A DNA stretch of 64,000 bases, taken from an uncultured virus (IMG/VR IMGVR_UViG_3300042691_030539) (taxonomy: Duplodnaviria > Heunggongvirae > Uroviricota > Caudoviricetes). Shown here one piece after another: positions 142 through 36,328 of this stretch (position 1 is its first letter; each line of letters begins with the position of its first letter). Under the pieces are notes generated by a model. The model did no database searches. It saw nothing but the letters and a program-made list of their open reading frames with translations, and was not told the DNA's origin. The DNA lies in IMG/VR virus record IMGVR_UViG_3300042691_030539; one strand, written 5' to 3'. The translations under genes were made by a program, and so were the position numbers.

Positions 142-213
142 GGCCTCGTCGTCTAATGGTTAGGACGTCACCCTTTCACGGTGAAGATTTCGGTTCGACT
201 CCGTGCGAGGCTA
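142..213 (+). tRNA. tRNA-Glu(TTC)
   Basis: Acceptor GGCCTCG/CGAGGCT; anticodon arm TCACC-CT TTC AC-GGTGA; GGTTCGACTCC T-arm. Confidence 0.95.
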
Positions 214-219
214 CAAAAT

Positions 220-292
220 GCCCGAGTAGCTCAGTTGGTAGAGCTTCTGATTTGTAATCAGATGGTCGCAGGTTCGAGTCCTGTCTCTGGCT
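220..292 (+). tRNA. tRNA-Thr(TGT)
   Basis: TCTGA-TT TGT AA-TCAGA anticodon arm; canonical D and T arms. Confidence 0.95.
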
Positions 293-297
293 CAAAA

Positions 298-346
298 GGA
301 CTTTAATGGATGGTGTACACATCTGAAGCAGGTTAGTCCCACCTGT
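298..346 (+). ncRNA. Putative small pseudoknotted RNA in tRNA spacer
   Basis: GGACT/AGTCC and GCAGGT/ACCTGT interleaved stems plus GATG/CATC hairpin. Confidence 0.4.
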
Positions 347-351
347 AAAAA

Positions 352-425
352 GGATTGGTAGTTCAGTTGGTTAGAATGCCGCCCTGTCACGGCGGAGGTC
401 GCGAGTTCGAGTCTCGTCCATTCCG
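352..425 (+). tRNA. tRNA-Asp(GTC)
   Basis: CCGCC-CT GTC AC-GGCGG anticodon arm. Confidence 0.95.
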
Positions 426-428
426 CAA

Positions 429-498
429 AACACAATTCGGTTGTATATGCAATTAGCTCGGCAACCGCTCGCACTTGAAGATGTAAAGTGATTGTGTT
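429..498 (+). ncRNA. Putative three-way-junction RNA in tRNA spacer
   Basis: AACACAAT/ATTGTGTT closing stem; CGGTTG/CAACCG and CACTT/AAGTG arms. Confidence 0.45.
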
Positions 499-505
499 CA
501 CATAT

Positions 506-580
506 GGCCTCGTAGTTCAATGGATAGAACGGGTGACTTCTAATCTCCAGATCCAAGTTCGATTCTTGGCGAGGCTACCA
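506..580 (+). tRNA. tRNA-Arg(TCT)
   Basis: GGTGA-CT TCT AA-TCTCC anticodon arm; encoded CCA. Confidence 0.93.
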
Positions 581-581
581 T

Positions 582-655
582 CGGGGAATAGTACAGTCCG
601 GTAGTATGCATGGTTTGGGACCATGAGGTCGTAGGTTCGAATCCTGCTTCCCCGA
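582..655 (+). tRNA. tRNA-Pro(TGG)
   Basis: CATGG-TT TGG GA-CCATG; acceptor CGGGGAA/TTCCCCG. Confidence 0.95.
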
Positions 656-664
656 CAAAAAAGA

Positions 665-696
665 TTTGGAAATGTTGAAAAATATTTCTATCTTAC
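665..696 (+). promoter_or_regulatory. Bacteroidota-type promoter
   Basis: TTTG 665-668, N20, TATCTTAC 689-696. Confidence 0.55.
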
Positions 697-715
697 ATTT
701 AGTTCTTTAAGAAAT

Positions 716-802
716 GCCCTTGTGGTGGAATAGGTAGACACGCAGGACTTAAAATCCTGTTCGCCGAAAAAGCGAGTACGAGTTCGATTCTCGTTGGGGG
801 CA
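716..802 (+). tRNA. tRNA-Leu(TAA)
   Basis: CAGGA-CT TAA AA-TCCTG; long variable arm. Confidence 0.95.
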
Positions 803-803
803 C

Positions 804-1183
804 ACATTATCGTTCTTTGACATATAAGGAGAAACAAATTATGGAAATACTATCATTCATTTTAGGGATAGCGTTGGTGGTGGTTATTGCACTTGCAATA
901 GTTGCTATTTACACTTTCGTTAAGGTAGGAAAATTAGCAAATGCTGTGAGAGATTTTGATATTAGAGAATCATCTATATATCAGAATATGCAATCAGAAG
1001 TAGGAGCATTACATAGAAGAGTAGATGAATTGGATAATAATATCGGTAGAAGAATTGATGATTTTGAAAGAGATATTTACTCCCAATTAGATTCTAGATT
1101 AGACAAGTTAGAAAACAAATTAACTGGCAATGTTGCCACAAAACAAAATTTAAAAGCATAAAATAGTTAAAGAACGATAATGT
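804..1183. repeat. 18-bp inverted repeat flanking the CDS at 841-1161
   Basis: ACATTATCGTTCTTTGAC (804-821) pairs with GTTAAAGAACGATAATGT (1166-1183), one G:U. Confidence 0.85.
841..1161 (+). CDS. Membrane-anchored coiled-coil protein
   Basis: ATG 841; N-terminal TM helix (ILSFILGIALVVVIALAIVAIY); heptad-like C-terminus. Confidence 0.8.
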   Translation: MEILSFILGIALVVVIALAIVAIYTFVKVGKLANAVRDFDIRESSIYQNMQSEVGALHRRVDELDNNIGRRIDDFERDIYSQLDSRLDKLENKLTGNVATKQNLKA

Positions 1184-1186
1184 AAT

Positions 1187-1260
1187 GGGGAAGTAGCTCA
1201 GTTGGCTAGAGCACTTGATTTGCATTCAAGGGGTCATGGGTTCGACTCCCTTCTTCTCCA
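1187..1260 (+). tRNA. tRNA-Ala(TGC)
   Basis: CTTGA-TT TGC AT-TCAAG; G3:U70 pair. Confidence 0.95.
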
Positions 1261-1265
1261 CATTT

Positions 1266-1339
1266 GGACCTATAGCTCAGTCGGTTAGAGCAAATGACTC
1301 ATAATCATTAGGTCCCTGGTTCGAGCCCAGGTGGGTCCA
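1266..1339 (+). tRNA. tRNA(CAT), probably Ile2 (lysidine type), possibly Met
   Basis: AATGA-CT CAT AA-TCATT; body resembles bacterial tRNA-Ile2. Confidence 0.85.
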
Positions 1340-1431
1340 CATAAAAAAATAATATAAAATTAATAATATTTTTTATTATAATCCGTATATATGAATGATT
1401 ACCTTTATTTATTAAAATTCATAATCATTTT

Positions 1432-2490
1432 ATGGCCGGAAAAAAGATATTATTCATTCTCCGAAGGAGAGTTGACTATAACGTACAAAAACATGGAACT
1501 AATAAAAGTTTAAGTACGGGATTGTATAATTCGGCAACATATATGCACGAGATGTTATTGAATGCAGGTATTGATAGTAAAATGTGTGTTGTTGAAGATA
1601 ATAATAAAATCGATAAAGAGGTATCGGAGTATAAACCAACGCATGTTATTATAGAGGCGTTATGGGTTGTACCATCGAAGTTTAGTGTTTTATGTAAACT
1701 ACATCCAAACGTAAAATGGATAATACGTTTACATAGTGAGATACCATTTTTGGGTAACGAAGGAATAGCTTTTGATTGGATTGGTGATTATATAGAATTT
1801 CCTAACGTAATCATCGCACCAAATTCCAAAAGAGCATTGAAAGATGTTCGGAATTTTGTTAAAACTAAAACATATTGGGGTGATGAATACCTTAAAGAAA
1901 AGGTTATACTTTTACCAAATTCATATCCTATTGTTTGGAAAAGAAAAACCTACTCCCAAAAAGATGAATATATAGATATCGCTTGTTTTGGAGCAGTGAG
2001 GCCTATGAAAAATCATGTGATACAGGCATTAGCAGCAATTGAATTTGCAGAATCAATAGGAAAAAAACTTCGATTCCATATAAATTCTGGAAGAGTTGAA
2101 CAGAGAGGTGAATCGGTTATAAATAATTTAATTGGTATTTTTAGTCATATTTACGATTCTGGTCACAGATTGATAAATCACGATTGGTTACCGAGAGAAA
2201 AATTTATTGAACTATGTTCGACAATTGATATTGGAATGCAAGTTTCATTTTCAGAAACATTTAATATAGTGGCGGCTGATATGTTGAGTCAGGGAGTTCC
2301 AATAGTTGTTTCCGATGAAATTCCATGGAGTAATCCAATGTTCGAAGCATCTCCAACCGATAGTGGTGATATGGTTAGAAAACTTAAATTGACAAATAAA
2401 TTTAATTGGATTAATGTTTATACAAATCAAAAATTATTAAATATATATACTAACAAAACACGTAAAATCTGGCTAAAACATTTTAAATGA
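1432..2490 (+). CDS. GT-B (GT4-like) glycosyltransferase
   Basis: FGAVRPMKN and SFSETFNIVAADMLSQGVPIVVS motifs. Confidence 0.75.
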   Translation: MAGKKILFILRRRVDYNVQKHGTNKSLSTGLYNSATYMHEMLLNAGIDSKMCVVEDNNKIDKEVSEYKPTHVIIEALWVVPSKFSVLCKLHPNVKWIIRLHSEIPFLGNEGIAFDWIGDYIEFPNVIIAPNSKRALKDVRNFVKTKTYWGDEYLKEKVILLPNSYPIVWKRKTYSQKDEYIDIACFGAVRPMKNHVIQALAAIEFAESIGKKLRFHINSGRVEQRGESVINNLIGIFSHIYDSGHRLINHDWLPREKFIELCSTIDIGMQVSFSETFNIVAADMLSQGVPIVVSDEIPWSNPMFEASPTDSGDMVRKLKLTNKFNWINVYTNQKLLNIYTNKTRKIWLKHFK

Positions 2491-2780
2491 AAAAGAGAGA
2501 AAGTAATAAGTACATTTTAAAAAACCCAATAGCATTGAAAGATTATCAACCAAATGATAATATGACTTTTAATGTGGTTTTGAAACTAATAAAGAAAGAA
2601 AATAACATACTATATGTTGAAGAAATAGAATGCGAATCTATACAAGATGCTCATAAAAAAATAAAGCAGATAAAAGAATCAGGTGTTAGAGTTAAAATAT
2701 ATAATGAGCATAGACATTTAGTACATAGTGAAACTGTGAACTATATTGTAGAACATGGAAATACACCAGATTACGCTTAA
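2487..2780 (+). CDS. Hypothetical protein
   Basis: ORF coupled to the upstream stop. Confidence 0.6.
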   Translation: MKKRESNKYILKNPIALKDYQPNDNMTFNVVLKLIKKENNILYVEEIECESIQDAHKKIKQIKESGVRVKIYNEHRHLVHSETVNYIVEHGNTPDYA

Positions 2781-2789
2781 TTAAATTTT

Positions 2790-3326
2790 ATGAAAAAATT
2801 CTTATTATATTCATCAATATTTGTATTGATTATAATTTCAATGTTTATTGGGTGTAATGCATTTTCAAATGAAGATAAACCATTCAATCAGGTTGTATTA
2901 AGTGAAGATAATATGGTAATAAATTACACTAGTATTAATTACTATGATACCGTTTTGAGTGTTGGATTGGATATGGCCGGAGTTGATGGTGTGTTAGTTA
3001 GAATGGAATCATTAAGTGATGCTGCAAAATCTAACTTTGATGGAGAACTAAAGGCACATATTAGATATTATAATGGTGTTTATTATTTGTTTGTTGATGA
3101 ATTGGATAGAGAGGATGCTATAACCATCATAGCACATGAAATAATTCACATATTACAATATAATTCAGGTCAGTTGCAATATGATTTAGCAAACGGATAT
3201 GTTATATGGGAAAACGAAACGATTGATCCAACGCGAGTATCATATGATGATAGACCTTGGGAGCAGGATGCACACCAAAGAGATGGGCAGTTAAGTGTTA
3301 AAATTAGAGATATATTATACAATTAA
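2790..3326 (+). CDS. Secreted or lipoprotein zinc metallopeptidase-like protein
   Basis: Signal peptide ending FIGC; HEIIH and downstream RPWE. Confidence 0.65.
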   Translation: MKKFLLYSSIFVLIIISMFIGCNAFSNEDKPFNQVVLSEDNMVINYTSINYYDTVLSVGLDMAGVDGVLVRMESLSDAAKSNFDGELKAHIRYYNGVYYLFVDELDREDAITIIAHEIIHILQYNSGQLQYDLANGYVIWENETIDPTRVSYDDRPWEQDAHQRDGQLSVKIRDILYN

Positions 3327-3342
3327 AAAAAAAGAAAAAGTT

Positions 3343-3585
3343 ATGCAAGTATTTATTTGTTATTATGCAATCACATTTTTGTATTGCATAGTTATGGCTT
3401 CCAGAAGATGGAATAAAGATGTTAGAGCGGGTGGATTAGGAATTACTCCTGCTATGGACACTATGGCAATCGCAATCATGTGTTGGGCATTGGCACCTGT
3501 AGATATATTCTTAACGTGGGTTAGGGTATATAAAGAGGCAGAAGAGGCAAAACGTAGGATAGACAAAGAACACAATATTTTCTAA
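3343..3585 (+). CDS. Small membrane protein
   Basis: ATG 3343; two hydrophobic segments. Confidence 0.65.
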
Positions 3586-3593
3586 ATCCAACA

Positions 3594-3678
3594 GGAGAGA
3601 TGGCAGAGTGGTTGAATGCACCGGTCTTGAAAACCGGCATACTGAAAGGTATCTGGGGTTCGAATCCCTGTCTCTCCG
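3594..3678 (+). tRNA. tRNA-Ser(TGA)
   Basis: CCGGT-CT TGA AA-ACCGG; long variable arm. Confidence 0.95.
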
Positions 3679-3683
3679 CAGAT

Positions 3684-3851
3684 TGTAAGGTGGTGAAATT
3701 AAATAACAGACGCGTTGTTTATGGCAGACACTCCCACTCGTCTCGTGGGTGCAGATATAGAAATAGATAAAAGGTATGGGTTGACCACAAGCTGCAGCAA
3801 ATGTGCCTTTTGTTGAATCTCTGCGTGAAGGTTCGAATCCTTCCCTTACAG
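3684..3851 (+). ncRNA. Enlarged tRNA-like RNA (168 nt)
   Basis: Acceptor TGTAAGG/CCTTACA; T-arm GAAGG-TTCGAAT-CCTTC; CCCAC/GTGGG stem with 7-nt loop; insertions in the D-loop and variable region. Confidence 0.8.
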
Positions 3852-3856
3852 CACAA

Positions 3857-3928
3857 GCGGATATCGTATAATGGTTATTACTCCTTCCTTCCAAGTAGGA
3901 GATGTCGGTTCGATTCCGGCTATCCGCT
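3857..3928 (+). tRNA. tRNA-Gly(TCC)
   Basis: CCTTC-CT TCC AA-GTAGG; acceptor GCGGATA/TATCCGC. Confidence 0.93.
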
Positions 3929-3932
3929 CATG

Positions 3933-4012
3933 GGCCTGTTAGTATTAGGCCGAAAGAGAAATAGGTGTTTTTCAATTACTAACCTTCCAAACACCATTTT
4001 TGGAGGGTATAT
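3933..4012 (+). ncRNA. Putative kissing-loop/pseudoknot RNA between tRNA-Gly and tRNA-Gln
   Basis: GGCCT/AGGCC hairpin whose loop GTTAGTA pairs with TACTAAC (3977-3983). Confidence 0.5.
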
Positions 4013-4083
4013 TGCCCTTTAGTATAACGGTAGTACGACAGATTTTGATTCTGTTTGTTGTGGTTCGAATCCATGAGGGGCAA
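4013..4083 (+). tRNA. tRNA-Gln(TTG)
   Basis: ACAGA-TT TTG AT-TCTGT. Confidence 0.93.
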
Positions 4084-4086
4084 CAA

Positions 4087-4112
4087 AAAAGCCGGTATAA
4101 AACCGGCCTTTT
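4087..4112. terminator. Intrinsic terminator, probably bidirectional
   Basis: AAAA-GCCGGT-ATAAA-ACCGGC-CTTTT between convergent units. Confidence 0.8.
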
Positions 4113-4131
4113 CTTTGGTTAAGAAATCAAA

Positions 4132-4293
4132 TTACTTTTTTGAAACGATTGACCAAACTGTTCCAACTAATGTTGCAACACCACCCGCTAACTCTGTGTA
4201 GAGTGATTCATCGATTAAACCTTTGGCGATTACAATACCACCAACAAATGTCAATACATGTCTTAAAATACCTAATACTTGATCTTTGTTCAT
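4132..4293 (-). CDS. 53-aa two-TM protein, putative holin
   Basis: Manual translation MNKDQVLGILRHVLTFVGGIVIAKGLIDESLYTELAGGVATLVGTVWSIVSKK; not in the ORF track. Confidence 0.7.
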   Translation of the reverse strand: MNKDQVLGILRHVLTFVGGIVIAKGLIDESLYTELAGGVATLVGTVWSIVSKK

Positions 4294-4506
4294 TTTTACT
4301 TTTTTTAGTTTAAAAATAAGTAGTAACCCTTAAGTAATAATATATATTCTTCTTTATTATCAATAATCAACACATATTTCTAATATAGAAAAATATTATA
4401 AAACTAAAAAAATAATAGATAATATTTATATTATTTTGCAGAATATTGTTCTGATAATCTATATATTTTTAGAATAAATTTCTACAAAACAACTGAAAAA
4501 AAATAT

Positions 4507-4540: not shown

Positions 4541-4756
4541 ATGGAAAAAATAGAAATTAATGCTGGTCACTATTTAGAATTAATGGATAGATTGCATGTT
4601 ATAGCGTGTACATTAAATGACCATTGTGTAGAACATCCTTTGTCAAAAGCTGATAAAGAAATTGAATTTAGAATAAAATATGCTTTGGGGCAAATATGGG
4701 ATGCCTATCAGTATGTAGGAAAAAAAGATTATGAAAATGAGAATAACACATATTAG
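4541..4756 (+). CDS. Hypothetical protein
   Basis: ATG 4541 directly after the promoter. Confidence 0.65.
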   Translation: MEKIEINAGHYLELMDRLHVIACTLNDHCVEHPLSKADKEIEFRIKYALGQIWDAYQYVGKKDYENENNTY

Positions 4757-5486
4757 CGATACACACAATAAGCACAACCAACTTAATGGTAAATTGCCGG
4801 GTGGTGATTTACTGATACATAGTGGTGATATTTCATCTATTGGTAGAGAGAGTGAAGTTGAACGTTTTATAAAGTGGTTCAATGGAATTGATAACTATAC
4901 CAATAAAGTATTTATAGCAGGAAACCATGACTTGAGTTTTGAATCCGAAGAACTATTTCAAAGAAAATCTAGCTTTTTTGATAGAAAAATCTATGAAGGA
5001 ATTCCATCTATGGGAAAACCACAATGGTTGGAAGTATTATTGGGTTCAGAATTAGCATCTAATGTTTTTTATTTAGAAAATAATTACATAACAATAGATG
5101 ATATTAAAATTTGGGGATCCCCATACTCACCAACATTTGGATATGATTGGGCATTTAATGTTGATAGAGGACACGATGCTATTAAGATTTGGAATAAGAT
5201 ACCGAAGGATGCTGATATTGTAATAACCCATACACCAATATATGGGTATTGTGATAGAGCATCAAACACAAATGAAAATGTAGGATGTGCAAATTTATAT
5301 CAAAGATTGAATGAATTGAATGTTCAACTACATTTTAGCGGTCATATTCACGAAGCGTATGGTTATAAACCAACAAAATGGGGATATGCTTTTAATGGGT
5401 GTAATTGTAATTTGAGTTATGAAGTTTATAATAACCCAATAACATTTGATTACGATTTTATTTCAAAAGAAATAAACTTTTTATGA
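4731..5486 (+). CDS. Calcineurin-like metallophosphoesterase
   Basis: SDTH, HSGD, AGNHD, THTP and GHIHE motifs. Confidence 0.9.
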   Translation: MKMRITHISDTHNKHNQLNGKLPGGDLLIHSGDISSIGRESEVERFIKWFNGIDNYTNKVFIAGNHDLSFESEELFQRKSSFFDRKIYEGIPSMGKPQWLEVLLGSELASNVFYLENNYITIDDIKIWGSPYSPTFGYDWAFNVDRGHDAIKIWNKIPKDADIVITHTPIYGYCDRASNTNENVGCANLYQRLNELNVQLHFSGHIHEAYGYKPTKWGYAFNGCNCNLSYEVYNNPITFDYDFISKEINFL

Positions 5487-5974
5487 TGAAGAAAGAAAAA
5501 ATATGGTTGTATTTAGATGATGTTCGAATACCGACCGAAGGAAATTGGCAAGTGGTTAGAAATTATGATGAGTTTATTTTGCATATAAAAATGCATGGGT
5601 TGGAGAACTACGAAGTAATAAGTTTGGATCACGATTTGGGTGAAGGTGCAATGGTAGAATATTATACCAACGTAAAACCTAATTATGAATTAAATTATGA
5701 AAGGATACCTGAAAAGACGGGTATGGATTGTGCTAGATTTTTGGTAACGGAAGCAATGAACAAAAATATTCAGTTACCAACTATCTATGTACATTCTGCC
5801 AATCCAATCGGAGCAGCAAATATAATAGGTTATATTAACAACTATTTTAGAAATCACAAATTGCCTGAAGTTTGTGTGAAAGTTAATATAGAACACACAT
5901 ACTCACCTGACCAAATTTTGAGTGAGGAAGAAAGACATCGTAGATACAATATTGTAAAAAAATATAAAAAATAA
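5483..5974 (+). CDS. Cyclic-phosphate-processing receiver-domain protein
   Basis: YLDDVR...SLDHDLG...TGMDCA...VHSANPIG signature. Confidence 0.75.
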   Translation: MMKKEKIWLYLDDVRIPTEGNWQVVRNYDEFILHIKMHGLENYEVISLDHDLGEGAMVEYYTNVKPNYELNYERIPEKTGMDCARFLVTEAMNKNIQLPTIYVHSANPIGAANIIGYINNYFRNHKLPEVCVKVNIEHTYSPDQILSEEERHRRYNIVKKYKK

Positions 5975-7627: not shown

Positions 7628-9889
7628 ATGAGTTGGTACAAATCCGCAGTTGGTAAGGTGAAGAATTATGCTTCATCTTTTTGGTATGATGACTATGATA
7701 CATCATTTGACTATCTTGAAGAATACGGGTCGTTCCAAAAGAAAGATTTGGATGCGTATAAAAAAACCCATAACCTTTACAAATTGGCATCGGTTCGTAG
7801 GGCTATTTCAAATTTCGTTCAAATCGTAACGAACAAATCTATTCCCGTTTCATTCGCAACAAAGAGTGATAGTAAAACGGATGGTAAGCGTGTTATCCTT
7901 TCCGCTGATGTGGATGATAACTTTGACGTTTCGGTTGGGTTGGCATTACACGAAGGTTCACACATTGTACTTTCCGATTTTGAAATGTTGGCAGCACTAT
8001 CCAACGTTAAAGGTGGTATAGAATCTCTGATTAGAAACATTCAATACCAAAAACAAAAAGCAGAACTTGAAGGAGCCGTTGATATCTACGATGAGAACTA
8101 TGTTGCAAAATCAATATCGGATTTCATTGATGGTAGATACCCAAAGTATTCATCTCAAATGAAAGATATTTATCTTACCACAGGTAAAGTTGGTAAGTAT
8201 GGAAATCTAACGGATGAAGTACACAATGTTATTCAGGGATTGACCAATTGGATTGAAGATAGACGTATTGATCATTACATATATAATTCCGCTCCTGGTT
8301 ATAGAGATTATTATCTTTCTATGTATGAACATTATTTCAATGATAAATCTGTAACCAAAGGTATCAAATCCGATGAGTTTACGGAAGAAACGATTGATAG
8401 TTATATGTTCCGAATTATCAACCTATTGAATAGTGAAACAAATCTATCCAAACTGAAAGGACTTCGTACTATATATCGTATGTTGGATTTGAAGAACATC
8501 AGTAGATTGAAAACATCGCAAGATTCTCTAGAACTATCTATCAATATTGTTTCCGAAATACTGAAGCATGTTACGGAAAACCAACAACAAACCGGCGCAG
8601 GTAAGGGTAATGGTAACAACCCTGATGGACAACCACAAAATGGTGATGCGGATGTAAACGAAATGGGTGATGGTAATAACGATGATATGGGTGGTGCAAA
8701 TGGTGATGCGAATGTGCAAGGTCAGAATAGTTCGCAATCAACATCGACGCCCGATAGTGATGGTGAAGGAAAGGATATGTTATCTAAATCCGCTCTTCAA
8801 TCTTTACTTAAAAAGTTCCAAAAGCAAAAAGACTTTCTTAATGGTAATCTGAAGAAGAAAACGATAACAAAGCAGGAGAGTGAGAAGTTGGAAGATATTC
8901 AGGAATCTGGTACGGAGTTGGTACGTGTTGGTTCTGATTATACACGTGATAATGGTACACCGATTGGTAAGGGTGTTGATTGTATCGTAGTGAAGAACCT
9001 TACACCCAAACTATTAGAGAGTTCGGACTTTCCATTCACCAATAGACGTTGGTCAGAAGATGGAGTACATACACCATATATTGATGAAGTGAAGCGTGGT
9101 ACTATGTTGGGTACTTTGTTGGGTAAGAAACTACAAATTCGTAATGAGAGTCGTGAAACAATATTCAGTAGATTGAAGAAGGGTAAGATTGATGGACGTA
9201 TGGTTGCATCGCTTGGATTTGATAACGATAATGTATTTTATCAACGTGATGTTGACCAATACAAAAAAGCAAACCTACATATCTCAATAGATTACTCCGG
9301 CTCAATGAGTGGTAGTAAGTTGAGAAAAGCGATTGTATCTACCGTCGCTATTGTTAAGGCTTGTGAAATGGCACGTAACATCAATACGCAAGTATCAATT
9401 CGTTCAACCGATAGTGGTAGTAGACCATTGCCATACGTTGTATTAGTACACGATAGTCGTAAGAGTACATTCAAACAATTTGCTCACTATATGAGTGCAC
9501 TTGAATGTACAAATACAACACCTGAAGGTTTGTGTTTTGAAGCAATTATGAAGGAACTTATCCCATCTACAAATGATACGGATAGTTATTTCTTAAACTT
9601 TTCGGATGGACAACCAACATACTCAATTCACACAGGTAGTGATGAAATTAGTTATGGTGGTACAACTGCTGCAAAACATACCCGTAAGCAAGTGAAGAAG
9701 ATGCAATCAAATGGTATGAGTATTCTTTCTTACTTTATTACGGAGTATAGTGAAGAACGTTTCCAACATTCATCCGATTGGGAAATATTCAGAGAGAGTT
9801 ATGGACCCGATGCAAAATACATAAACGTAGAAAATATGTTTGAGGTTGCAAAAACGATGAACGAATTGTTCCTTAAAAAAGAGAGATAA
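7628..9889 (+). CDS. vWA-domain protein with N-terminal HExxH domain (MoxR partner)
   Basis: LHEGSH; G/N/D-rich linker; MIDAS DYSGSM, T-P-E and FSDG. Confidence 0.85.
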   Translation: MSWYKSAVGKVKNYASSFWYDDYDTSFDYLEEYGSFQKKDLDAYKKTHNLYKLASVRRAISNFVQIVTNKSIPVSFATKSDSKTDGKRVILSADVDDNFDVSVGLALHEGSHIVLSDFEMLAALSNVKGGIESLIRNIQYQKQKAELEGAVDIYDENYVAKSISDFIDGRYPKYSSQMKDIYLTTGKVGKYGNLTDEVHNVIQGLTNWIEDRRIDHYIYNSAPGYRDYYLSMYEHYFNDKSVTKGIKSDEFTEETIDSYMFRIINLLNSETNLSKLKGLRTIYRMLDLKNISRLKTSQDSLELSINIVSEILKHVTENQQQTGAGKGNGNNPDGQPQNGDADVNEMGDGNNDDMGGANGDANVQGQNSSQSTSTPDSDGEGKDMLSKSALQSLLKKFQKQKDFLNGNLKKKTITKQESEKLEDIQESGTELVRVGSDYTRDNGTPIGKGVDCIVVKNLTPKLLESSDFPFTNRRWSEDGVHTPYIDEVKRGTMLGTLLGKKLQIRNESRETIFSRLKKGKIDGRMVASLGFDNDNVFYQRDVDQYKKANLHISIDYSGSMSGSKLRKAIVSTVAIVKACEMARNINTQVSIRSTDSGSRPLPYVVLVHDSRKSTFKQFAHYMSALECTNTTPEGLCFEAIMKELIPSTNDTDSYFLNFSDGQPTYSIHTGSDEISYGGTTAAKHTRKQVKKMQSNGMSILSYFITEYSEERFQHSSDWEIFRESYGPDAKYINVENMFEVAKTMNELFLKKER

Positions 9890-9892
9890 TCA

Positions 9893-9917
9893 AAAGGGGA
9901 GTTTGACTCCCCTTTTT
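9893..9917 (+). terminator. Intrinsic terminator
   Basis: AAAAGGGGAG-TTTGA-CTCCCCTTTT. Confidence 0.75.
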
Positions 9918-9958
9918 TAATAAAAATAGTTTAATAATAAATCACCAAAAATTAAAAC

Positions 9959-11263
9959 ATGAAAAAGAAAATTGTCAGCAAAACTACTAAAACAAAAACT
10001 ATGGCTCGTAAAACTGCAAAGCGTGTGAGTACACGTAAAAGTACTCGTAAGACAGTGGATACAAACATTGGATTCACAGATGAGTGTTACAAAAGTATTC
10101 AGATTGGACGTTCGTTTGCATTGATGAATACCGCAGGTGATGTTACTCAAAAGGTTGCCGGTATCAGTAAGGCTAAAATGAAAGAAGCTCATACTGAAAA
10201 CAAAGCACTTCGTGGATATGTGGGTAAGACTGGTAACGTAACCTACAAATTGGTTGAGATGGATGAATTCAAAAAGTTGGCTAATGTAATTGATGATAAT
10301 GCGTGTGATAGTGTAAGTGAAGCATTTGAAACACATGATGCGTTGAAGCAGTTTATCCATGAGAAAGGTGCTGAACTGAAACCTGAAGGTTTGTTCATTG
10401 AATCATTGAAGTGGAAATATCTTCTTCGTTCAGCAGTACGTGGTAAGAACATTATGATGTTAGGCCCCACCGGTTGTGGTAAGACACTTGCCGCTCAATC
10501 ATTGGTTAAATCCCTAAAGCGTCCTGATTTCTATTTCAACTTGGGTGCTACGCAAGATGCCCGTGCTACCCTTATTGGTAACACACACTTTAACAAAGAG
10601 ACCGGTACATTCTTTAGTGAATCGGCTTTCGTTAAAGCAATCAAAACTCCTAACGCAATCATTTTGCTTGACGAGTTGAGCCGTGCACATCCAGAAGCTG
10701 CAAATATCCTTATGACTGTGTTGGACCAGGGACAAAGGTATCTCCGTTTGGACGAGGCTATTGATTCACCTATCGTAAAAGTTGCAAGTGGTGTTACATT
10801 CATCGCAACCGCAAACGTAGGTAATGAGTACACCGCAACCCGTGTTATGGACCGAGCCCTTCTCGATCGTTTCGTAACTATTGAGATGGACCTGTTGGAT
10901 AAGCAAAGTGAATATGAGTTGTTGAAATTCAAATTCCCTGAAGCGGATGATTATTCATTGAACGCTCTCGCTGAAATCGCTGAAACAACCCGTCAACTTA
11001 TCAAAACGGATATGAGTAAGGTTTCTACCATTATCTCTACCCGTGTGAATGTTGAGGCTGCCGGACTCATCTATGATGGTTTCACATTGATGGAAGCAGC
11101 AGAGATTGCAATCCTTCCTTATTTCAGTAATGATGGTGGATTGGATAGTGAGCGTGTGTTTGTGAAACAACTTGTTCAGAAATATATTAAAACCGAAGAC
11201 GGTTCTCAACTCTTCAATGAAGTGAATGATGACCAATCCGCAGACGAAACTATTGTTTGGTAG
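9959..11263 (+). CDS. MoxR/CbbQ-like AAA+ ATPase
   Basis: Walker A GPTGCGKT, Walker B ILLDE, ATAN and DRALLDRF. Confidence 0.9.
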   Translation: MKKKIVSKTTKTKTMARKTAKRVSTRKSTRKTVDTNIGFTDECYKSIQIGRSFALMNTAGDVTQKVAGISKAKMKEAHTENKALRGYVGKTGNVTYKLVEMDEFKKLANVIDDNACDSVSEAFETHDALKQFIHEKGAELKPEGLFIESLKWKYLLRSAVRGKNIMMLGPTGCGKTLAAQSLVKSLKRPDFYFNLGATQDARATLIGNTHFNKETGTFFSESAFVKAIKTPNAIILLDELSRAHPEAANILMTVLDQGQRYLRLDEAIDSPIVKVASGVTFIATANVGNEYTATRVMDRALLDRFVTIEMDLLDKQSEYELLKFKFPEADDYSLNALAEIAETTRQLIKTDMSKVSTIISTRVNVEAAGLIYDGFTLMEAAEIAILPYFSNDGGLDSERVFVKQLVQKYIKTEDGSQLFNEVNDDQSADETIVW

Positions 11264-36230: not shown

Positions 36231-36304
36231 GGTCAGATGGCGCAATTGGTTAGCGCAAGATGCTTATACCATCGAGGCTACGGGTTCGAGTCCCGTTCTG
36301 ACCA
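36231..36304 (+). tRNA. tRNA-Ile(TAT)
   Basis: Acceptor GGTCAGA/TCTGACC + A73; GATG-CT TAT AC-CATC; T-arm ACGGG-TTCGAGT-CCCGT. Confidence 0.9.
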
Positions 36305-36328
36305 CTAAACAATTTTAAAATTTGAATT

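Follow-up and report, generated by a model that had tools for sequence, protein, structure and literature searches.

Long variable arms are a textbook feature of the tRNAs for leucine, serine, tyrosine (in bacteria) and selenocysteine only. The RNA considered here, referred to as the element, is a 168-nucleotide (nt) tRNA-like RNA with a class-II-shaped fold, encoded at positions 3684–3851 (+ strand) of a 64,000-nt stretch of DNA from an uncultured member of the Caudoviricetes (IMG/VR record IMGVR_UViG_3300042691_030539), the whole of which is called the window. Conceptually, the nearest described RNAs are the allo-tRNAs, non-canonical class-II tRNAs that have G73 and non-serine anticodons, GUC being frequent among them. 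They were found in metagenomes and assigned to Clostridia, Proteobacteria and Acidobacteria, and a role in missense suppression or as regulatory RNAs was suggested by their authors (Mukai et al. 2017, PMC5389517). The species 1 and 2 RNAs of phage T4 (rnaC and rnaD) are stable RNAs without an assigned function at the end of the phage tRNA cluster, the end of rnaC being a T-arm-like hairpin. The YrlA RNAs, tRNA mimics bound by Rsr/Ro and present also in phages, have tRNA-like D and T arms (PMC4201824). Comparison of the window with viral and bacterial genomes showed that the element is a genuine, conserved RNA of a widespread, undescribed family shared by Bacteroidota and phages.

The family is overlooked by the standard tRNA finders and by Rfam. 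ARAGORN at default settings did not call the element, with introns allowed or not, and the element matched no family of Rfam 15, either at the gathering score over the whole window or at E up to 10 over positions 3560–3960; the Rfam tRNA model (RF00005) recognized the T arm only, with 14 bits (E = 5.1) against a gathering score of 29 bits. When the element and a typical relative were compared by BLAST with 50,697 GenBank phage records, no match was found at E up to 0.01; a wider 801-nt query matched 680 GenBank phage records through the flanking tRNAs. Of the records compared, the nearest to the window was an IMG/VR fragment identical across 3560–3960, and an exact 27-nt pattern from the 3′ end of the element gave 0 matches in viral contigs, a set from which near-identical records may be missing. 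Literature searches on long-arm tRNA-Asp, variable arms, tRNA-like RNAs of phages and Bacteroidetes, GatCAB and asparagine, mistranslation, and anticodon nucleases and decoys yielded no description of the family. DNAVirus_1850 of Fremin and Bhatt, a marine motif of 66 nt that overlaps a tRNA-Asp call in 1 of 27 places, could not be equated with the family from the available text (PMC10690425).

Relatives were obtained by using the neighbouring metallophosphoesterase as bait, which gave 63 related viral loci, and by searching for the element with nhmmer. It was found in six of these loci, each time directly 3′ of tRNA-Ser(UGA), and was missing from the closest viral locus by protein identity. 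In that locus (L002) and in L065 the tRNA order is the same and tRNA-Gly directly follows tRNA-Ser, so that the element has been gained or lost between close relatives. A 27-column pattern spanning the D loop and the anticodon arm then matched at least 120 viral stretches; new and earlier loci together made 127 pattern matches, 126 of which could be delimited while one ran off its contig, and these yielded 101 distinct sequences of 93–187 nt.

The cloverleaf and the variable domain of these RNAs were shown to be under structural selection. The acceptor stem closes in all 101 viral copies, with 7/7 pairs and U8–G9 in 100 of them; changes on both sides were seen for all seven pairs, and 99.9% of the cells are paired. 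In the MAFFT alignment (A1) with a 40-pair structure, 92.7% of the cells pair, compared with 41–52% when the partners were slid by 1–3 columns; 30 of the 40 pairs change on both sides, and none of 500 shuffles reached any of the observed measures. A model-based alignment that included the bacterial copies (A2), which was fitted to the structure and is thus biased towards it, also gave 92.7% paired cells, with 32 of the 40 pairs changing on both sides. Two of the three D-stem pairs covary (AU/GC/UA; UA/CG; 99.3% paired), as do four of the five T-arm pairs (96.7% paired in the model-based alignment). Under the covariance model of the family (R1), members scored 87–140 bits and ordinary tRNAs at most 55.6 bits. 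Of the 101 members ARAGORN called only the four shortest (93–95 nt), each of which it took for a tRNA-Asp(gtc) whose variable arm is long. In about one third of the members (for example those of L017, L009 and L014) one U bulges from the 5′ strand of the T stem, at either of two positions, and the pairs flanking it covary.

The anticodon loop was assessed by a second search in which its seven positions were left free, and which gave 95 distinct copies. G34–U35–C36 was kept in 95/95 of these, and U37 and C38 in 93/95 each. Elsewhere in the 101 viral copies, G73 is present in 101, G2–C71 in 99 and U1–A72 in 98, the remaining three having A1–U72. At positions 32–33 the 146 bacterial copies have CU (71), UU (47), CG (13), UC (13), CC (1) or UG (1), and the 101 viral copies CU (73), UC (13), UU (10), CC (3), UA (1) or CG (1); position 33 is thus not U in 28 of the 146 bacterial and 18 of the 101 viral copies, the window, with UC, included. 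The determinants of aspartate identity are reported to be G73, G34, U35, C36 and C38 (strong) and G2–C71 (minor) (Giege and Eriani 2023, PMC9976931). Judged by sequence conservation, the family carries this set, with G1–C72 lacking: the conserved positions would be those that aspartyl-tRNA synthetase (AspRS) reads, whereas at the two positions for which decoding demands U33 and a purine (37), the family drifts or has another base; the window has C33 and U37.

The home of the family is the Bacteroidota chromosome. The same pattern occurred in at least 122 stretches of species-representative genomes, and all 80 titles among the matches listed were Bacteroidota, the cultured carriers among them being Chitinophaga, Algoriphagus, Spirosoma, Cyclobacterium, Echinicola and Marinoscillum. 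We take the carrier names listed to represent Chitinophagaceae, Cytophagales, Saprospiraceae, Cyclobacteriaceae, some Flavobacteriales and a Bacteroidaceae metagenome-assembled genome (MAG). With R1, one or two copies per genome were found in 5/5 bacterial genomes tested, and at least 14 of 151 sampled Bacteroidota genomes held a copy, a lower bound that says nothing on absence, as no more than 20 candidates per genome were scored. Five bacterial loci compared with Rfam at the gathering score matched no family. All 122 bacterial loci were examined for neighbours, and only 77 of them hold at least 750 nt of upstream sequence. In 71, an AsnC-like regulator is divergently oriented at a distance of 107–244 nt upstream, the median being 140 nt. 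Among the NCBIfam models AsnC fits this regulator best, with 167.6 bits and thus below the 227-bit cut-off, and the Pfam matches are AsnC_trans_reg and an HTH_AsnC-type domain. The conserved unit consists of the regulator and the RNA, since the genes further out vary (sufB/sufC, an Opp permease or a glycosyltransferase).

In the element itself, the perfect 7-bp acceptor stem and the canonical T arm of the preliminary description, made from the letters of the window alone, were both found, together with a loop lacking U33 and a purine at 37 and the nested variable domain of about 75 nt with its GCAGA/TCTGC stem and long inner helix (Table 1). The D region is indeed split by an extra hairpin; a likeness specifically to tRNA-Leu was not borne out, as the best ordinary tRNA among the viral loci under R1 is a phage tRNA-Asp (44.5 bits). 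The conserved GUC, U and C of the loop, on present evidence the aspartate identity set, had been missed. The view that the element is no decayed pseudogene is supported, for it is a selected, structured, covarying RNA within a tRNA operon, and so is the proposal that its loop is not built for ordinary decoding, by the variation at 33 and the conserved U37 across the family. The outcomes named beforehand as fatal to the description were likewise not encountered: no Rfam family was matched, no plausible splicing leads to a normal tRNA, and the structure is strongly conserved among homologues.

Overall, the element has the architecture of a tRNA, with a 7-bp acceptor stem, U8 and G9 following it, G18 and G19, a 5-bp T stem with a UUCRANY loop and a single discriminator, G73 (3851), with which it ends, CCA not being encoded. 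The motif GGCA.AC of the D loop is invariant in A1, where it was fixed by the search pattern, and it recurs in copies found by the model alone. Within the variable domain, G95, G96, T98, G100, A101, C102, C103, A104 and C105 (element numbering; window 3778–3788) are at least 90% conserved. Folded alone, the element gave −47.5 kcal/mol, a value only modestly beyond chance (z = −2.05, equalled by 8 of 200 shuffles); the support for its structure comes from the homologues and not from single-sequence folding energy.

Table 1. Parts of the element and neighbouring features in the window.
Feature	Position	Strand	Remarks
Whole tRNA-like RNA	3684..3851	+	R1 131.8 bits, model positions 1–146; boundaries from acceptor pairing
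Acceptor stem, 5′ strand TGTAAGG (U1 G2 U3 ...)	3684..3690	+	7/7 pairs with CCTTACA 3844–3850
D stem, 5′ strand GUG	3693..3695	+	3 bp; pairs with CAC 3729–3731
Extra D-loop hairpin	3700..3721	+	8-bp stem, TAAATAAC 3700–3707 with GTTGTTTA 3714–3721; loop AGACGC; RNAfold
Conserved 3′ part of D loop, UGGCAGA with G18 G19	3722..3728	+	Alignment A1
Anticodon-like arm CCCAC / UCGUCUC / GUGGG	3733..3749	+	Stem 100% paired across family; loop 3738–3744 with C33, GUC 3740–3742, U37 3743, C38 3744
Structured variable domain, ~75 nt	3751..3824	+	Nested helices V1, V2
V1 stem GCAGA/TCTGC	3751–3755 with 3820–3824	+	3/5 pairs covary
Junction GAAAUAG opposite UGAAUC	3760–3766 / 3814–3819	+	Type A form
V2 helix	3767–3777 with 3803–3813	+	10/11 pairs with changes on both sides
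Conserved hairpin GGGUUGACCACA, bulged A, within variable domain	3778..3789	+	3/4 pairs change on both sides; 94.2% paired
Perfect palindrome GCUGCAGC, apical part of variable domain	3791..3798	+	Palindrome at same spot in relatives
T arm GAAGG / UUCGAAU / CCUUC	3827..3843	+	Rfam tRNA model positions 46–63; stem 3827–3831 (GAAGG) with 3839–3843 (CCTTC), loop TTCGAAT
tRNA-Ser(UGA)	3594..3679	+	ARAGORN; Rfam tRNA 57.6 bits; 4-nt spacer before element
tRNA-Gly(UCC)	3857..3929	+	ARAGORN; Rfam 59.8 bits; 5-nt spacer after element
tRNA-Gln(UUG), final operon gene	4013..4084	+	ARAGORN
Terminator-like hairpin and U tract closing the Ser/element/Gly/Gln unit	4091..4117	+	Sole terminator-like site in 3250–4350

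The window is phage DNA; all 31 open reading frames of at least 180 amino acids (aa) lie on the same strand, 12 tRNA genes are present, and the PHROG families include a Pam3-type holin, a DNA ligase, an HNH endonuclease and a peptide deformylase. The viral copies differ from the bacterial ones in the junction of the variable domain: type A, the form of the window, accounts for 49 of the 101 viral and 4 of the 146 bacterial copies, type B (CUGAUAAAG / CCUAAAG) for 24 and 1, and type C (GGAUAAAC / GCUAAC) for 21 and 134, respectively. A long D-loop insert at the spot of the window's hairpin is present in 35 of the 101 viral copies, 28 of which fold there as a hairpin of at least 3 bp, and the inserts are of several unrelated sequence types. 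A perfect palindrome of at least 8 nt follows the conserved GGGUUGACCAC hairpin in 73 of the 94 viral copies that have this hairpin, as compared with 8.9% of shuffles, and 32 different palindromes occur. Since a plain hairpin needs no self-complementary loop, pairing between two RNA molecules is suspected.

No conserved protein partner linked to the element was found in phages, the neighbours varying with the type of contig: tRNA-Ser with a small membrane protein, an unknown protein with the terminase large subunit, an exonuclease, or PhoH. On smaller viral contigs (such as L087, L114, L105 and L162) the element lies outside tRNA clusters, and the flanking genes are those for an unknown protein ending in ...GGQNLAYDQ (23 loci) and for the terminase large subunit (phrog_6681; 16 loci). 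Two short contigs binned in Bacteroidota MAGs (L344 and L353) have phage-type copies, with the type A junction and the D-loop hairpin, and are likely to be phage contigs or parts of prophages that ended up in the host's bin. One 204-nt RNA-library contig ends exactly at position 3851, which shows presence only and is no proof of transcription or of RNA ends.

Canonical bacterial tRNA-Asp(GUC) resembles the family in the GUC anticodon, C38, G73, G2–C71, a 9-nt D loop with G18 and G19, the T loop and the 7/5 acceptor/T arrangement. In contrast to it, the family has U1–A72, U37, a free position 33, a D stem of three pairs and, instead of a variable loop of 4 to 5 nt, a structured variable arm of 20 to 110 nt; moreover, it coexists with a normal tRNA-Asp in phage and hosts. 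The window encodes an ordinary tRNA-Asp at 352–426 (loop CUGUCAC, G1–C72) and the carrier bacteria also keep a canonical one, so the element is an extra species and not the aspartate decoder. From the allo-tRNAs, which are defined by a D arm resembling that of tRNA-Sec and by acceptor/T stems of 8/4 or 9/3 (PMC5389517), the family is set apart by its 7/5 geometry and normal D loop, seven acceptor pairs followed by U8 and G9 and a five-pair T stem, in some copies with a bulged U, being found in 101/101. The anticodons of allo-tRNAs are diverse, whereas that of the family is fixed; its variable domain is far larger, and its carriers are Bacteroidota. With tRNA-Asn and an engineered tRNA-Asp(U1–A72), substrates of the amidotransferase GatCAB, the family shares U1–A72, G73 and G34–U35 (PMC1635274); unlike these substrates, it keeps the antideterminant nucleotide in its D loop and has large insertions.

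The T4 species 1 and 2 RNAs, named in the preliminary description as a precedent, have neither a GUC arm nor a class-II layout, and proved to be unrelated: with R1 and the filters off, the T4 locus gave a partial match of 14.3 bits for rnaC, below the scores of T4's ordinary tRNAs under the same model, and no match for rnaD. YrlA presumably has its free ends in the stem that Ro binds, its acceptor-like stem being closed, whereas the ends of the element pair as a true acceptor stem followed by a discriminator. The Rfam comparison at E up to 10, which covers YrlA if Rfam 15 includes it, gave no family for the element. A tRNA-Sec, which needs UCA and an 8/5 (13-bp) branch, was excluded by the GUC and 7/5 of the family. 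A tmRNA was excluded as well, since neither ARAGORN nor Rfam called one and position 3–70 is U–A in 96 of the 101 copies, not G3–U70.

We tentatively prefer, with somewhat less than even confidence, to regard the element as a phage member of a family of oversized, class-II-shaped tRNA(Asp, GUC)-like RNAs which would be recognized by AspRS, would not decode, and might serve as substrates of GatCAB. As with ordinary tRNAs, RNase P and 3′ trimming would release the RNA from the Ser/element/Gly/Gln transcript, and CCA would be added; this is likely because of the tight spacing in the tRNA operon and the intact acceptor, T arm and D-loop elbow. AspRS is the most likely reader, given the apparent conservation of the aspartate identity set, and would probably aspartylate the RNA. 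Normal decoding would not be among its roles, given that U33 can be dispensed with and that a pyrimidine is conserved at position 37. The aspartyl form might be passed on to GatCAB, a hand-over suggested by U1–A72 (98/101), the pair on which bacterial GatCAB relies: a tRNA-Asp given U1–A72 is amidated, C36 is irrelevant, and a GUC anticodon is no hindrance to amidation (Bailly et al. 2006, PMC1635274). GatB was found in 14/14 RNA-bearing sampled genomes. The RNA could thereby act as a cofactor or sensor of aspartate/asparagine metabolism under AsnC-type control, a role to which U1–A72, the AsnC-like neighbour and the reported existence of some Bacteroidetes with AsnRS, GlnRS and GatCAB and without asparagine synthetase (PMC4206432) point. 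The phage copy would maintain the supply of the RNA after host transcription fails. The D-loop hairpins are additions of the phage copies, as is the palindromic variable domain, through which two molecules might dimerise.

The boldest reading compatible with the data, and an unlikely one, is that the RNA is a dedicated, non-decoding cofactor for the synthesis of amide amino acids, AspRS loading aspartate and GatCAB converting it to asparagine on the RNA. Here the bulky variable domain, together with U37 and the lack of constraint at position 33, would bar the product from the ribosome, so that no asparagine would enter at aspartate codons; the AsnC-type regulator would set the level of the RNA, whose gene would stand in place of asnA, which we take to occupy the corresponding position beside AsnC in E. 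coli. Two UUC-loop copies of one genome would be a glutamate/glutamine counterpart, and Bacteroidota phages would carry dimerising versions to keep or redirect the supply during infection.

A number of observations weigh against the reading that we prefer. Position 10 is G in only 31 of the 101 copies, and G10 is, as we understand it, an aspartate determinant in E. coli. The family's U1–A72 departs from the G1–C72 that bacterial tRNA-Asp strictly keeps and that helps to seat the 3′ end in E. coli AspRS (PMC9976931), and the long variable arm with G73 and G2–C71 also fits SerRS. One genome has two copies that read UUC instead of GUC; these are the tandem copies of a Bacteroidota locus (L449; G140:C1:3852019-3852449), with the glutamate-type loop CUUUCUC, in which U37 and C38 are kept. 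Regarding GatCAB, a supernumerary nucleotide 20A cut amidation about 100-fold in the system of Bailly et al. (PMC1635274); the D loop of the family, AAUUGGCAG, has 9 nt, like that of the window's own tRNA-Asp, and is thus not the short D loop of GatCAB substrates, and the phage D-loop hairpins sit where the GatCAB antideterminant lies. GatB is present in 126 of the 151 sampled Bacteroidota, so that its presence in the carriers does not discriminate, and AsnB occurs in 3 of 5 RNA-bearing genomes, so that the RNA is not the sole route to asparagine. AsnA is rare (4/151 at E up to 1e-60; 3/151 over the cut-off), and no complementary distribution of GatB, AsnA or AsnB and the RNA was seen in the sampled Bacteroidota. 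We know of no route from an asparagine-charged, non-decoding RNA to usable asparagine. Both DNA patterns fix parts of the D loop and the anticodon stem, and conservation there is partly by construction. Finally, in four RNA-library runs from three studies, contigs with relatives had depths of 2.6–4.7, which could be DNA carry-over.

Among the alternatives, a regulatory or scaffold RNA which binds AspRS or another protein by way of its anticodon arm and variable domain (for sequestration, sensing or tethering) and is never an aminoacyl donor is one that we regard as rather unlikely. It would account for the covarying helices of the variable domain, the near-invariant GGGUUGACCAC and AUA / AA junction, the phage palindrome fit for two-molecule pairing (73/94 against 8.9% of shuffles) and the divergent amino-acid-type regulator, which suggests conditional expression, and bacterial Y-RNA-like tRNA mimics offer a precedent (PMC4201824). 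The invariant G73, the perfect acceptor stem and the tRNA-like 3′ end are what charging needs and would be superfluous in a protein sponge, and no gene for a partner protein is consistently linked in phages. For the defence decoy put forward in the preliminary description there is no direct evidence, and it is weakened by the occurrence of the same RNA as a Bacteroidota chromosomal gene beside an AsnC-like regulator. Very little credit can be given to the idea of an intron-bearing or decayed tRNA gene, the inserts of which would be introns, or junk in a dying tRNA. ARAGORN, which by default with introns called nothing, proposed at a lowered threshold only a 'tRNA-Gly(gcc) with a 96-nt intron', a solution that needs a mostly unpaired D arm and removes the very parts that are best conserved, the GUC arm included. 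The 'inserts' covary, no group I or other intron or ribozyme family was matched at E up to 10, and no reads joining across 3708–3803 or another internal segment were seen in the low-depth contigs of the four RNA-library runs; the reading as an intron-bearing tRNA was rejected.

Decoding is what the two other alternatives have in common. A spare tRNA-Asp isoacceptor, whose U37 and bulky arm would resist tRNA-cutting toxins or defence nucleases and which would serve host and phage as a backup once the canonical tRNA-Asp is destroyed, is distinctly unlikely, even with GUC kept in 95/95, U33 in 93/95 of the main clade, and the 7/5 geometry, G18, G19 and T loop all canonical. Evasion of anticodon nucleases has been proposed for phage tRNAs whose anticodon loops are altered (PMC10264068), and a predicted RNA-repair pair (Metallophos and cREC_REC) is encoded 0.9 kb downstream in the window and also in 7–8 related loci. 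Yet position 33 is not U in 19% of the bacterial and 18% of the viral copies, and in the window too; U1–A72 stands where bacterial tRNA-Asp strictly has G1–C72; and decoding gives no reason for a conserved 75-nt variable domain and D-loop hairpins. A pyrimidine at position 37 is, to our knowledge, nearly absent from decoding tRNAs. These objections to decoding (U33 and U37) hold equally for a serine-accepting missense tRNA of the allo-tRNA type, which we consider highly improbable. The long variable arm, G73 and G2–C71 are indeed SerRS signals (PMC7609411, PMC9976931), GUC is among the commonest allo-tRNA anticodons, tested allo-tRNAs inserted serine in E. coli and were toxic (PMC5389517), and the element adjoins tRNA-Ser in jumbo-like phage loci. 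SerRS, however, ignores the anticodon, and yet GUC, U37 and C38 are conserved; the geometry is 7/5 and not 8/4 or 9/3, and many Bacteroidota would scarcely conserve a toxic missense tRNA as a single-copy gene on the chromosome, next to a housekeeping regulator.

The family places a long arm, grown into a folded domain of 20 to 110 nt, on an aspartate-type body in which the putative synthetase-recognition positions are kept and those for decoding vary. Several orders of Bacteroidota have it as a regulated gene of the chromosome, and in their phages it has been repeatedly remodelled. If the RNA is charged and does not decode, it would add a case of an aminoacyl-tRNA-like RNA used outside translation, and it would give a handle on why many bacteria retain GatCAB alongside AsnRS and on the roles of phage 'tRNA-like' genes beyond codon supply.

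Other features were noted in the window and in related contigs. Another oversized tRNA-like gene, of 137 nt, lies on a related viral contig (L051:11395-11531, + strand); it scored only 34.7 bits under R1 and is not called by ARAGORN. Its acceptor stem is of 7 bp, its T arm is canonical, its D loop holds an insert, the discriminator is A and the anticodon region is irregular. At 36231–36305 (+) the window has a solitary tRNA-Ile (anticodon UAU), distant from the main tRNA cluster (142–4084). Downstream of the tRNA block, at 4731–5974 (+), the gene for a calcineurin-like metallophosphoesterase precedes that for a cREC_REC protein ('cyclic-phosphate processing receiver'); the two are a predicted pair for RNA-end repair, which recurs downstream of the element in the related loci mentioned above. 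Further on, at 7628–11263 (+), a 753-aa protein with weak vWA/CobT-like matches is followed by a MoxR/CbbQ-type AAA+ ATPase, the two forming a MoxR–vWA pair.

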